Source: a virus | Strand: one strand, 5' to 3' | Virus record (IMG/VR): IMGVR_UViG_3300034111_000335 | Location: 1 to 64,000 of that record | Length of the DNA stretch: 64,000 nt | Shown: piece by piece, positions 3,959-37,905 of the stretch | How positions within the stretch are numbered: the first letter of the stretch is position 1 | Layout: every line of letters begins with the position of its first letter | Made by a program: the position numbers and the translations under genes | Notes under the pieces: model-generated | Seen by the model: the letters and a program-made list of their open reading frames with translations, nothing else | The model's database searches: none | What the model was told of the DNA's origin: nothing

Positions 3959-4153
3959 AAAAACAACTTCTTGCATGCTCACCATGCTTTTAGATTTTAC
4001 TGGACATAGTTTACTGTCCACCTGTTGACGTGCACATCAGAGCAGGGTCCATCACAGTTCACTTTGGGTCATGTAACTCATTTGGGTAATTACTCCCAAG
4101 AGCCAAAGTATCTTTCAACGGTGCTAATCCGCCCTCTGTAAGAAGTTGTTTTT
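3959..4153 (-). ncRNA. candidate ~195-nt structured RNA directly 3' of tRNA-Leu
   Basis: 17-bp closing stem (aaaaacaacttcttgca / tgtaagaagttgttttt, one non-WC pair) enclosing at least five hairpins; no ORF in the track. Confidence 0.55.
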
Positions 4154-4242
4154 TGGTTCTATTGATGGGAATCGAACCCATACTGACATTGCTGTCAACA
4201 GGATTTTAAGTCCTGCGTGTCTACCTATTCCACCACAATAGA
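4154..4242 (-). tRNA. trnL: tRNA-Leu (anticodon UAA), encoded CCA
   Basis: TCTATTG/CAATAGA acceptor stem, CAGGA-CTTAAAA-TCCTG anticodon arm, long variable arm, ATGGG-TTCGATT-CCCAT T-arm, ACCA end. Confidence 0.95.
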
Positions 4243-6304: not shown

Positions 6305-6379
6305 TGGTAGCCCCTGGGTGAATCGAACACACCATCTCTAGGATGAAATCCTATTGTCCTACCATTAGACGAAAGGGCC
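6305..6379 (-). tRNA. trnE: tRNA-Glu (anticodon UUC), encoded CCA, slightly non-canonical stems
   Basis: GGCCCTT/AGGGGCT acceptor stem, TAGG-ATTTCAT-CCTA anticodon arm, TTCGATT T-loop, ACCA end. Confidence 0.85.
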
Positions 6380-8385: not shown

Positions 8386-8592
8386 TTAAGAGTCAAATAA
8401 TTTATCCCGGTCATCATCTTTAGCAATCTCTACATAACGTAAAGGCTTACTATAATCAAACTCAGGATCATCACATCTATATCCATAGTAACAAGGACAC
8501 TTGGTGGCATAGAGAGGAACAAGCTTAACTTGTACTACATTAGGATAAGATTTAGTCTTATCAAAGTTTGGGATAGTAGTTATTATCTTCAT
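8386..8592 (-). CDS. hypothetical protein
   Basis: 68 aa ORF with ACAGATATG start context. Confidence 0.6.
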   Translation of the reverse strand: MKIITTIPNFDKTKSYPNVVQVKLVPLYATKCPCYYGYRCDDPEFDYSKPLRYVEIAKDDDRDKLFDS

Positions 8593-8638: not shown

Positions 8639-8755
8639 TTACTCCCATCTGCACTCAGTTGTAATAAGAGGCTTTACTAAGAGCAAACATGCCTACTTAG
8701 TTACGTTATTACAACTGCTCACCCTTTGGAAGTGAGTTGTGGTGCATTAAAGTAA
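8639..8755 (-). ncRNA. twister-like self-cleaving ribozyme (type P1) with extended P5, copy 1
   Basis: P1 UUACUU/GAGUAA; UAA; P2 UGCA/UGCA; P4 CUCAC-UUCCAAAGG-GUGAG; pseudoknots CCA/UGG and CC/GG; P5 CAGUUGUAAUAA/UUAUUACAACUG. Confidence 0.75.
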
Positions 8756-8820
8756 GACAGTTTCACTTCGCATTATATCTGTCTTGAACCCCGCTTCTAG
8801 GGTTTAAAGTAAAGGGGTTG

Positions 8821-8991
8821 TTACACCCCATATAGAGAATTATGAATCTTATATAGAACACCATTATCTTCAAAGACCATCCAATACTGATAATTAACAT
8901 CAAGTCTTGTTTGTCCTTTAAATTCAGGATTCTTTAAGTTCATGTAATCAGACGAACTGATTTCCTTTGCAATGTTTAATAGATTTTCCAT
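8821..8991 (-). CDS. 56-aa hypothetical protein (start reassigned to MENLLN)
   Basis: A-rich leader before the ATG at 8991; the longer 9069 start overlaps a structured RNA. Confidence 0.65.
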   Translation of the reverse strand: MENLLNIAKEISSSDYMNLKNPEFKGQTRLDVNYQYWMVFEDNGVLYKIHNSLYGV

Positions 8992-9042
8992 ATGTATATT
9001 GTTTGTTTTAATTTCAAAATAAAAAAGCAGTTTAAACACTTG

Positions 9043-9243
9043 CTTAGGTATAGTACGTCTTAGTACCATCAGAGAGTTGTTTTTCCTTTACGTACCATGG
9101 CTCACAAGCGGTACAACCTTTCCAGGTAATTCTAAAGTTGGGTTTCATAAGACAATCTTAATTTATTACACGCAAGTCACTAGCGTGGAATCAAGAACCT
9201 TCTAGTAAGGATTACCAACAAATCAGTGTCAGTTTTACCTAAG
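9043..9243 (-). ncRNA. candidate ~200-nt multi-branch structured RNA
   Basis: Closing stem cttaggta/tacctaag; nested stems gttg/caac, ggtaat/attacc, gtacc/ggtac, cacgc/gcgtg, cctt/aagg. Confidence 0.45.
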
Positions 9244-9463
9244 TTAGATAACTAGAATCTTTTAGAATAGATAATAAAGTAATTCAATTGTAATACAAGG
9301 CTTGTTGATTTATCTTGTATTTCGACACATTCATTTCCCCATAGTGTCTGATGAGGTAATGGAGAATTATTACTTGCTGTTAAGCATTGTCCATTTTTTT
9401 TATCTAGCACCCTTATCTAGTCTTTGCATTAGCTACTGCAAATAAAGATTGGGTTACAATTGT

Positions 9464-9627
9464 TTACTCCACTCTGCATTCAATTGTAATAATAGACCTT
9501 AAAGTTATATACTCAAAAGAGCCTTAAAACTATGTATCCATACAACAAATACCTGATCCAGTCATATTTGTTGCTTATTATTACAATTGCCGGTCCTTGT
9601 GAAACCGGTTATGATGCATTAAAGCAA
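9464..9627 (-). ncRNA. twister-like self-cleaving ribozyme (type P1) with large P5 insert, copy 2
   Basis: P1 UUGCUU/GAGUAA; UAA; P2 UGCA/UGCA; P4 CCGGU-UUCACAAGG-ACCGG; pseudoknot CAC/GUG covaries with copy 1; 14-bp P5. Confidence 0.78.
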
Positions 9628-9659
9628 CCAAGCAAAAACTTCGCTTAGCATTAGATAAC

Positions 9660-9940
9660 GGCTCTGCTATAAGAGACGAATAAGAATAACCTATAAGACC
9701 TTATAAGAGATTATATAAGAGGTTATAAGTTAGTAAGGTTAATAGGAATTTTACTTATTGGTCATATCACAACCTAAAAGATATTAAAATCCACTATTTT
9801 GGACAGTGAGAAAGAAGATAGAGAGGGAAGAATCCCCTTTTTCTACCACTTTCTACCACTGAATTGTCATAAAAAAGTTAAACAAAATGACAATTGTCTT
9901 GGATTTTCCCGGGTTTAGACTTTCAAAAGTTAAACAAAAC
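9660..9940. repeat. AT-rich non-coding region with direct and inverted repeats (possible origin)
   Basis: Repeated tataag; ttctaccact twice (9841-9860); aattgtcat/atgacaatt inverted repeat; aaaagttaaacaaaa at 9873 and 9925. Confidence 0.4.
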
Positions 9941-10033
9941 CTATTTTACCTGTTAATTGAGAAAAATACACAGTAAAATGAGAAAGATAAACCCTTGGAA
10001 TAATCTTTGAAACCCCCAAAGGGGGAAGTGTGG

Positions 10034-10504: not shown

Positions 10505-11089
10505 ATGCGAAAATTAAAAAATTTTATTTTTATCTTATCTTTCTTTCTTTCCCTACAAGGGTTCTCTCAGAGAGACTCTGTTTATGTTAAGACCTCTATC
10601 TATTCTTGTGTGTATTCAGAGGTTTTACAACAGCCTAAGCGAGTTTGGTACACTGTTCAATGTCCCTTAGGTTCTTATCCTAGAAAAGGAATGGACTTCT
10701 ACACTAACGATAGTGTAAGAACGAGTGACGGAAAAGATTACGAGGCTAATGTATGGGATAAGGGACATTGTGCTCCAGCAGCTGACTTTAACTGTGATAA
10801 AGATAGACTATGGGCTACCTTCTCTTACCTTAATTGCGTCTTACAGCACGAAAGGTTAAACAGAGGTGCTTGGAGATTCTTAGAAGTAAGAGAAAGAGAG
10901 TTAGCTAAGTCTCAAGTTGTCGAGGTAGAGATTAAAATGATTTACTCTAAGAGCAGTTTAAAATTGCCAACAGGAGCTACAGTCCCTGATGGATTCTTAA
11001 AAACTATTAAATACGGCAAGGTGAAGGAAGTTTATTATTTCAAGAACGAAGATCCAGGTACCACCGATTACTTAAGGTTTAGGAAGTAA
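10505..11089 (+). CDS. secreted DNA/RNA non-specific endonuclease (NucA/EndA family)
   Basis: Signal peptide; WDKGH, TFSYLN..LQ...LN..AW..LE motifs, ATVP. Confidence 0.9.
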   Translation: MRKLKNFIFILSFFLSLQGFSQRDSVYVKTSIYSCVYSEVLQQPKRVWYTVQCPLGSYPRKGMDFYTNDSVRTSDGKDYEANVWDKGHCAPAADFNCDKDRLWATFSYLNCVLQHERLNRGAWRFLEVRERELAKSQVVEVEIKMIYSKSSLKLPTGATVPDGFLKTIKYGKVKEVYYFKNEDPGTTDYLRFRK

Positions 11090-37370: not shown

Positions 37371-37571
37371 TAGCTCTCGGAGCTAAGTCTCTGTTCTGTC
37401 CACTTATTGCCTACGGTCTATTAGTTGTAGGTCAGAGCACTGTAAACTTCGTAAGAACATTTCGACACTATCGGAGAAACCTCTTTTCACCTCTGAGGGC
37501 TACTCATACTATCCGACTTCTAGCAGATTACTTTCTAATCCTCATCTGCGAACACTAAGAAGTGGTGTCAG
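37371..37571 (-). ncRNA. candidate ~200-nt structured RNA with its own promoter
   Basis: TACATTTG -7 element at 37576-37583; nested stems GACAC/GUGUC, ACUUCU/AGAAGU, GCAGAU/AUCUGC, UCGGA/UCCGA, GUUCU/AGAAC, CCUAC/GUAGG, UAGCU/AGCUA. Confidence 0.55.
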
Positions 37572-37632
37572 TCTACAAATGTAATAGCATTTGTAGGTCA
37601 GAAGTCTGGTGTGTTGAAAATTTGTGGATTTT

Positions 37633-37905
37633 TTAGAGTCCTGCAGCCTGCTGACCCTTTAGATAATCAGTCTGTTGCATTGGAGGATCATCGTCTACAA
37701 GAGAGTCCATAGCCATTTCTATGTATTCCCACAACATTTCTTCTGTGTATCTCTTTCTGTAGGTAAAGTCTTTGAAGCCTTCGTACAAAGCATTTTTAAA
37801 TCCTTCTATATCCCCTGCTATCTTAATCTCTTCGTCTTGCAAGGCTAAAAGGAATATGTCAAACACTTCCTGAGCTGTGGGTTTTTTAATCTTTTCCATC
37901 GACAT
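37633..37905 (-). CDS. hypothetical protein
   Basis: ORF preceded by minus-strand TATATTTG at 37926-37933; start reassigned. Confidence 0.65.
   Translation of the reverse strand: MSMEKIKKPTAQEVFDIFLLALQDEEIKIAGDIEGFKNALYEGFKDFTYRKRYTEEMLWEYIEMAMDSLVDDDPPMQQTDYLKGQQAAGL

Follow-up and report, generated by a model that had tools for sequence, protein, structure and literature searches.

Twister ribozymes cleave at a U-A step one nucleotide 3' of stem P1, and the A of that step is highly conserved (PMC8501958 and PMC5408937). In the type-P1 class (RF03160) the elements follow in the order P1, UAA, P2, L2, P4, a 9-nt L4, P4', L2, P2', GA with T1', and P1' (Roth et al. 2014, reviewed in PMC5408937 and PMC6154101; S. 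mansoni examples in Table 1 of PMC8501958), while in the type-P5 class (RF02684, clan CL00120) P1 is closed by a loop and the element ends in P5. Self-cleaving ribozymes cluster near one another and near phage genes, according to PMC10085705, and in that source and in PMC8501958 the biological role of bacterial and phage twisters is still given as not known. This study focused on two small RNA-like elements in the first 64 kb of a lake phage genome (IMG/VR record IMGVR_UViG_3300034111_000335, positions 1 to 64,000; hereafter the window), which belong to a large phage family matched in 100 IMG/VR loci. They have the element order of type P1 but differ from every twister model in Rfam 15, and the phage family was not described in the literature searched, most subscription journals lying outside that search. 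Both elements are likely to represent an uncatalogued sub-family of phage twisters, with P1 open, P3 absent and P5 closed, which are predicted to split transcripts by self-cleavage.

An earlier note on this DNA had proposed two elements with a shared layout, and that observation is confirmed: they lie as placed, on the minus strand, at 9627..9464 (copy 2, 164 nt) and 8755..8639 (copy 1, 117 nt). Read 5' to 3', both have the form P1(6)-UAA-UGCA-Y-C-AYAA-P4(5)-UU-NNN-AA-GG-P4'(5)-CAR..P5..YUG-A-R-UGCA-GA-NNN'-P1'(6), and the 15-base and 17-base patterns of the flanks each occur exactly twice in the 64 kb, with no mismatch. The upstream element, copy 2, reads UUGCUU-UAA-UGCA-UC-AUAA-CCGGU-UU-CAC-AA-GG-ACCGG-[P5 9589..9481]-A-A-UGCA-GA-GUG-GAGUAA. 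Its P1 is formed by 9627-9622 with 9469-9464, followed by UAA (9621-9619), P2 as UGCA(U) 9618-9614 with (A)UGCA 9479-9475, the junction C-AUAA (9613-9609), P4 (9608-9604 with 9594-9590) around L4 UUCACAAGG (9603-9595), P5 with its insert (9589-9481) and GA (9474-9473), and the pseudoknot T1 joins CAC 9601-9599 to GUG 9472-9470. Copy 1 reads UUACUU-UAA-UGCA-CC-ACAA-CUCAC-UU-CCA-AA-GG-GUGAG-[P5 8717..8656]-A-G-UGCA-GA-UGG-GAGUAA, with P1 at 8755-8750 and 8644-8639, UAA at 8749-8747, P2 as UGCA(C) 8746-8742 with (G)UGCA 8654-8650, junction C-ACAA at 8741-8737, P4 at 8736-8732 and 8722-8718, L4 UUCCAAAGG at 8731-8723, P5 at 8717-8656, GA at 8649-8648, and T1 pairing CCA 8729-8727 with UGG 8647-8645. 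The compensatory changes that had been claimed for P4 (CUCAC/GUGAG versus CCGGU/ACCGG) and for the pseudoknot (CCA/UGG versus CAC/GUG) are present in the sequence, and the copies differ further at the fifth P2 position (C-G versus U-A) and in P1 (A-U versus G-U). The P5 inserts are indeed unrelated, P5 stem bases alone matching between the copies (repeat families D1 and D3), but GAGUAA, which had been listed as a motif in its own right, is simply the 3' strand of P1. Minimum free energy folds yield P1, P2, P4 and P5 in both copies, with folding z values of -4.24 (copy 1) and -5.02 (copy 2) and no shuffled sequence as good (0/200 each).

Searches of IMG/VR showed how widely this layout recurs. 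A degenerate pattern gave at least 115 stretches, mostly chance matches, and complete elements with matching P1 and T1 were present in nine loci among the matches listed; a stricter pattern with 20 specified bases gave at least 119 stretches, and the loci counted below were taken from among the matches listed in that scan. An alignment of 26 short members (A1) served as the seed of a covariance model, R1, in which P1, P2, P4 and the base of P5 were specified as stems and T1 was left single-stranded. Since the rows of A1 had been prefiltered by pairing (T1 3/3, P1 at least 5/6), its 96.7% paired count is biased, and the larger alignment was relied on instead. Against the 118,886-bp genome R1 found exactly two copies, copy 1 (in the seed) at 113.6 bits and copy 2 (outside the seed) at 88.6 bits (E ~1e-28), and with filters off no additional copy was detected between 7000 and 11000. 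A third match on the minus strand at 37568-37671 (15.5 bits, E 0.02) consists of P4 and P5 only, runs opposite to the local genes and is probably due to chance. Across the fetched loci R1 made 131 matches in 100 loci, with at least one per locus, some of the loci duplicating one contig region (e.g., L185/L200 and L164/L181). The alignment of these matches (A2; 120 distinct sequences), on which all covariation counts are based, is paired in 93.9% of cells, compared with 78.1% in shuffles and 26.7–45.9% when the partners were slid; although the models favoured their own stems, the slide controls were nevertheless just 27–46% paired. Changes on both sides were seen in 27 of the 29 pairs, and none of the five measures was reached in any of 500 shuffles (0/500). 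P2 and P4 are each 99.0% paired, with both-sided change in 4/5 and 5/5 pairs, respectively. T1 (columns 35-37 with 306-308), although unmodelled in R1, is 96.7% paired and covaries at all three pairs (CG, AU, UA). The commonest closing pair of P1 is U-G (40), followed by U-A (33), and as a U-G pair becomes a C-A mismatch on the opposite strand, this fits an RNA on the strand that carries the element (here the minus strand) and no other.

Near-invariance in the family falls on the bases at which mutations abolish or reduce the activity of canonical twisters. At the predicted scissile site U12 is U in 123/125 sequences, A13 is A in 130/130 and A14 is A in 128/130; between P2' and T1', G304 is G in 122/127 and A305 is A in 124/126; and in L4, A38 (124/124), A39 (125/125) and G40 (124/125) are kept, as is G41 (124–125/125). 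Mutating the A 3' of the cut in canonical twisters abolished activity in five of five ribozymes tested, mutation of the second A nearly did so, and the G acts as general base (PMC11662667). The register of the family also agrees with that of the type-P5 twisters. The RF02684 consensus reads cGCA-GA-GgG-[P1 hairpin]-UAA-UGCg-GC-Aaga-cCG-GUCcCAAGCC-CGg and the family, written in the same circular order, reads R-UGCA-GA-NNN-[P1]-UAA-UGCA-YC-AYAA-P4-UUNNNAAGG-P4'. Common to both are UAA, a 4-bp P2 starting UGC, GA between P2' and T1', a 6-nt junction between P2 and P4 with C and A equally placed, and an L4 of register x-U-T1-AA-G-x; the 9-nt L4 also agrees in register with Table 1 of PMC8501958. 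In the env22 twister a U-G pair closes P1 beside the U-A site, and G48-A49 is followed by the T1 strand and then P1 (PMC6154101), an arrangement matched by the family beside P1 (U-G closing pair, U-A; G-A, T1, P1'). Because the U-A of the loop sits one nucleotide 3' of P1, the cut is predicted to fall inside UAA, at U9621/A9620 in copy 2 (9620..9621, minus strand), giving a 3' product that would begin with a 5'-OH at A9620, and at U8749/A8748 in copy 1 (8748..8749, minus strand). From the register match to the Twister-P5 consensus it follows that the family represents a twister variant whose P1 is open and whose closed P5 carries a hypervariable insert.

Compared with type P5, the core letters are near-identical and in the same register, and tandem co-oriented arrays in phage contigs are common to both; canonical examples form six copies within 3.5 kb of one locus (L273, 618-3310, plus strand) and three in another (L263, 4183-6026, minus strand). 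The main difference is a circular permutation: in RF02684 P1 is loop-closed and the molecule ends in P5, while in the family the two ends pair to form P1, and P5 is closed. The P4 stem has 3 bp in RF02684 but 5 bp here, and T1 is mostly CCC/GGG there but variable here (CCC, CCA, CAC, UCC and others). The family P5 inserts range from 2 to 151 nt as aligned, with a median of 61, and the RF02684 model does not score the family. Type P1 shares not only the element order but also a U-A site one nucleotide 3' of P1 and an optional P0 that resembles the hairpin found upstream of family members. P3 occurs in 78% of annotated twisters and is absent from the family, P5 occurs in 1% of annotated twisters and is always present in the family (PMC6154101), and P2 is fixed as UGCA, unlike in RF03160. 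Twister-sister (RF02681) has a multi-stem junction and a similar P4 loop and, as in the family, lies near phage-related genes (Weinberg et al. 2015, described in PMC5408937 and PMC6154101), but it has no pseudoknot evidence and cleaves the opposite strand of its internal loop, whereas the family has a covarying T1 and a twister-like UAA/GA loop; RF02681 gave no match on the window region or the minimal members. In the summary that PMC10085705 gives of Roth 2014 and Weinberg 2015, bacterial clusters of ribozymes are tandem in phage DNA with a role that is not known, which holds for the family as well, but they consist of catalogued hammerhead and twister ribozymes near Mu-like phage genes, whereas the family occurs in lake phages among short non-coding modules and small open reading frames (ORFs). 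The 'T-variants' of PMC8501958 are P1/L1 variants of canonical schistosome twisters and not the phage family.

Several results weigh against a self-cleaving twister and have to be set beside this agreement. The earlier note had assigned the elements to the type-P1 architecture; the covarying stems and T1, the retained active-site bases and the matching register bear this out, but a match to an Rfam model is absent. A search with the Rfam twister-P1 model, a test set in advance, gave no match to RF03160 anywhere in the genome, and none of the Rfam 15 twister models (P1, P3, P5, sister) matched the window region or the related locus L091 at E 10 or better. The same was true of minimal members of 67 and 71 nt (L132 and L165, searched as stretches of 101 and 111 nt), and permissive searches of the region, L091 and the minimal members produced just chance-level matches to unrelated families. 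In the positive control, IMG/VR was scanned with the canonical P4/L4 motif (Table 1 of PMC8501958) and Rfam was run on five resulting loci; Twister-P5 (RF02684) was found ten times, at 38.7–59.6 bits, in three of the five (L263, L244 and L273), while two loci carrying the motif twice each (L304 and L277) gave no Rfam match at gathering. RF02684 is unable to align the family because of the circular permutation, and RF03160, with a gathering score of 67.2 bits, is presumed too narrow; the misses would then reflect narrow and permuted models and not non-membership. A second difficulty concerns T2. The equivalent bases, YC and GG, could pair (C22-G40 and Y21-G41), but C22, G40 and G41 are invariant, and Y21 covaries with R298 as though it lengthened P2: of the 127 rows in which position 21 is occupied, 87 are C-G, 33 U-A, 3 U-G and 4 something else or gapped, and 4 additional rows have gaps in both columns. 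In place of the canonical G-C of RF02684, T2 would begin with a Y-G pair. One sequence (L172:10330-10470) has U21 with A41. Disruption of T2 in canonical twisters strongly lowers activity (PMC11662667). P1 is only 78.1% paired overall, even though all six of its pairs change on both sides; its inner three pairs are about 88–90% paired, with five or six standard pair types each. In addition, several RNA-library contigs (e.g., one of 1787 nt in run X2) span the predicted cleavage sites of relatives, and these could represent uncleaved RNA or DNA. Finally, scans for promoters identified none, so the 'early' timing that had been suggested for these transcripts is unproven.

The placement of the family members is in keeping with an RNA read from the sense strand. 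For 125 of the 131 copies, same-strand ORF sequence exceeds opposite-strand sequence within 1.5 kb (141,826 versus 24,225 nt in total), and 121 of the 131 are free of overlapping ORFs of at least 70 aa. Tandem co-oriented copies occur in 26 of the 100 loci, separated by gaps of 16–2289 nt. Four loci (L118, L168, L144 and L091) have an upstream copy of the CCGGU/CAC or CCUAC/CAC type followed downstream by a CUCAC/CCA-type copy, an order also seen in the window, and the pair is therefore an old arrangement. Differing P4 and T1 letters in neighbouring copies would be expected to reduce mispairing between them. This sense placement between small genes and modules, often in tandem, suggests the hypothesis that twisters punctuate and insulate phage transcripts, and because the family is invisible to Rfam 15, both phage annotation and ribozyme censuses miss it. 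Low-scoring (24–34 bits) or partial relatives lacking parts of the core were also seen adjoining intact copies (L204:3357-3489, L204:4389-4547, L198:464-641, L157:13924-14064, L174:2775-2845, L169:4154-4224 and L186:1129-1199), and these may represent copies in decay or another kind of frame.

From the fold and its covariation, the conservation at catalytic positions, the co-orientation with strand and genes and the tandem recurrence, all of which were observed directly, we infer cleavage, its timing and its consequences as follows. Each copy, being sense in the leftward transcription unit, would fold co-transcriptionally into a double-pseudoknotted twister core and cut the UAA loop just after its U, at 9621/9620 and 8749/8748. 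The upstream fragment would end in a 2',3'-cyclic phosphate just past the 5' strand of P1, and the downstream fragment would start with a 5'-OH and a compact ribozyme body. The cut in copy 2 would sever a leader of about 320 nt. The two predicted cuts delimit an RNA of 872 nt (9620..8749), in line with the figure of about 870 nt given earlier, and the piece so freed would consist of the body of copy 2, two non-coding modules (C and B) and a 56-aa ORF (ORF56), with two hairpins (8805-8750) preceding its 3' end. The remaining mRNA of small genes, with its first ATG at 8592, would then be headed by the body of copy 1. As the ends of these pieces would be unlike those of primary transcripts, the stability and translation of neighbouring segments would be uncoupled.

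The interval between the copies is a mosaic of three modules with different nearest relatives, as judged by blastn against the fetched loci. Module A (8804-9053, minus strand) carries ORF56 (8821..8991) and is 99.6% identical in L068/L118; the encoded protein has 100% identity over 56 aa in L118/L068 and 50% over 50 aa in L166, L145 and L137, where the homologues are always directly upstream of a ribozyme, and it has no PHROG match. A terminator-like hairpin (8829-8814) overlaps the ORF56 stop codon. Module B (9025..9296, minus strand) is non-coding, contains a conserved hairpin around GUACCGCUUGUGAGCCAUGGUAC and is 92% identical to L144 9945-10219, where it lies between two ribozymes; it is present in L138 and L176 too. 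It covers the segment 9043-9243, for which a structured RNA had been proposed; this structure is weakly supported, its fold being not clearly more stable than those of shuffles (z -1.76, 6/200 as good) and the covariation of four sequences weak (9 of 45 predicted pairs with both-sided change, covariation term -0.81), and the whole of 9020-9463 is not unusually stable (z -0.87). Module C (9264..9462, minus strand; inverted repeat I16, pattern matches, alignment A3) is non-coding, with 2- and 6-nt indels among its homologues that argue against coding, and has a closing stem of the P5 type without a ribozyme core, formed by CAAUUGUAAC (9462-9453) with GUAUUACAAUUG (9296-9285). As a free-standing hairpin (9285-9462) it shares the closing stem of ribozyme P5 (CAAUUGUAA...UUACAAUUG). 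It is 93% identical to a stretch between two ribozymes in L185/L073/L200 and 88.6% identical to L091, and it ends in UUACUUUA, which starts a ribozyme in L185. Module C in L185, and module B in L176 and L144, lead straight into a ribozyme (UUACUU-UAA-UGCA...), but the window has unrelated sequence where those ribozymes begin, and it thus carries two ribozymes, against the four expected in relatives that share these modules. Directly upstream of copy 1 is a module of two hairpins (8750..8805, minus strand; AACCC..GGGUU and AAGACAG..CUGUCUU), the second of which abuts P1 and looks like the optional P0 of twisters; the stretch up to 8805, starting from 8698, 8707, 8744 or 8751, recurs upstream of ribozymes in L164/L181, L172, L108, L215 and L068/L118 at 85–89% identity. 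The outcome for annotation is that a gap seemingly poor in ORFs is filled by a pair of ribozymes, a single gene of 56 aa and two non-coding modules.

P5 starts right after P4', and a single A separates its end from R-UGCA. Sequence conservation extends over its first 10 pairs, which also covary (97.1% paired, both-sided change in 9/10), while the minimal members have a P5 hairpin of only 3–6 bp. The inserts form a natural series that spans 2 nt to over 100 nt, indicating that extra RNA is tolerated by the twister fold, which is useful for ribozyme engineering. The insert of copy 2 had no match among the fetched family loci, and no antisense targets of the P5 inserts or of modules B and C were found above chance in the phage genome.

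There may be other explanations for these elements. One is that the twister-like fold does not cleave but serves as a stable scaffold, binding protein, displaying cargo or stabilizing a 5' or 3' end, with the conserved bases kept for folding or recognition. The missing covariance model match and a T2 that lacks confirmation, with its non-canonical first pair, would be accommodated by such a scaffold, and so would the base of P5, whose 10 bp show more sequence conservation than is usual in a helix (C78, A79, U81 and G294 above 95%), and the plain P5-type hairpins without a ribozyme core in module C and in L185/L200, L165, L184, L136 and L199; the last two features suggest a role beyond catalysis. 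It is unlikely nonetheless, as the conserved positions are exactly those for twister catalysis (UAA, GA and the AA of L4), beyond what the fold needs, and the placement between cistrons and the tandem arrays match those of proven self-cleaving classes. The elements could alternatively act at the level of DNA, as conserved blocks of about 40 nt that delimit exchangeable cassettes or are hot spots for recombining them, with homologous recombination there moving ORF56, modules B and C and the P5 inserts from phage to phage and the RNA fold being secondary. Modules and P5 inserts are reshuffled among related phages: modules A (L068/L118), B (L144/L138/L176) and C (L185/L073/L200/L091) differ in their nearest relatives, the breakpoints lie at or beside ribozyme ends, the 119 inserts of at least 25 nt fall into 92 clusters, and identical inserts are found on cores differing in P1, P4 or T1. 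Such a role is nevertheless improbable, leaving unexplained the compensatory changes in five helices, including the pseudoknot, as well as the strand-specific G-U pairs and the sense orientation of 125/131 copies, and it is more likely that recombination at conserved cores is a by-product, which is compatible with self-cleaving twisters.

The pair might also be a dedicated excision device that releases a single functional RNA, possibly circular, comprising a structured RNA and the 56-aa gene. The geometry fits, with 872 nt between the predicted cuts, and ends of the 5'-OH and 2',3'-cyclic phosphate kind can be joined by a host ligase of the RtcB type. However, the unit that the two ribozymes had been thought to bracket is not conserved, modules B and C lying between ribozymes in relatives but the ORF56 module just upstream of one; the gaps in tandem arrays vary as widely as described above, the interval is not unusually structured, and no back-joined form was present among the joints of RNA-library contigs (contigs only), all of which makes this very improbable. 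A further idea, possible if rather doubtful, is that ribozyme and P5 stem together form a modular frame, so that arrays process one transcript into discrete small RNAs with exchangeable cargo and the cores double as recombination joints. Each RNA would then be a nuclease-resistant twister scaffold showing its own P5 insert, or a free module between cuts, and the whole would amount to a self-processing operon of non-coding RNAs, comparable to the tRNA-punctuated or CRISPR-type processing of precursors; the inserts might be regulators, decoys or anti-defence RNAs, with phages swapping cargo at the cores. Self-cleaving twisters that split transcripts are still the reading we prefer.

Public RNA libraries contain material from this family. 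Parts of the stretch are held in 24 RNA runs, of which the four examined consist of assembled contigs with no ends or strand readable, and family cores with other inserts are found, as presence only, in RNA-library contigs of four studies. Contigs start or stop at 9140-9142 in three runs and stop at 9378-9379 in two, where depth exceeds that of the flanks (28.7 and 14.3), but as they lie near a mosaic boundary (homology to L176 stops at 9149) they are not read as RNA ends.

Upstream of copy 2 is a conserved leader of about 320 nt (9628..9948, minus strand), presumed to be the promoter region. Its identity is 92% for L185/L073/L200 and 83% for L068/L118, relatives in which it likewise lies upstream of the ribozyme arrays. 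It contains the exact 15-mer TTTTGTTTAACTTTT twice (9939-9925 and 9887-9873, 52 nt apart), a tandem of TTTCTACCAC x2 (9840-9859) and overlapping palindromic TATAAG repeats (9692-9729). The genome shows no enrichment of the 15-mer (7 matches versus 7 for a reversed control), a sigma-70 scan gave 6 sites versus 7.9 in shuffles, and a -33/-7 pattern of the Bacteroidota type matched 4 times versus 2.17 expected, none of them upstream of copy 2.

The family motif was found in only 7 contigs among 185,579 species genomes, all of them contigs of metagenome-assembled genomes (L228-L234) with inconsistent labels (Woesearchaeota, Roizmanbacteria, Saccharibacteria, Alphaproteobacteria and three Bacteroidota); these are probably phage contigs that were binned with other genomes, and no host was inferred from them.

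The source record is a complete virus of 118,886 bp with direct terminal repeats, and PHROG matches point to a tailed phage. From about 12 kb the plus strand carries terminase, portal and major head genes, while a leftward block from position 1 to about 9.6 kb encodes a helicase, a ParB-like protein, two tRNAs, a freshwater-1 RNA and many small ORFs; both ribozyme-like elements are on the minus strand, as is every adjacent ORF. At gathering, Rfam 15 found nothing on the whole window beyond freshwater-1 and the two tRNAs. The freshwater-1 RNA (RF02979, 84.4 bits; 3995-4056), a long-arm tRNA about 100 nt away (4157-4242) and the second tRNA (6308-6379) are all on the minus strand and share the leftward block with the ribozymes. 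The divergent region that lies upstream of this block contains a plus-strand gene (10505-11089) for a 194-aa protein with a hydrophobic N-terminal segment that matches a PHROG nuclease family (E 2e-14).

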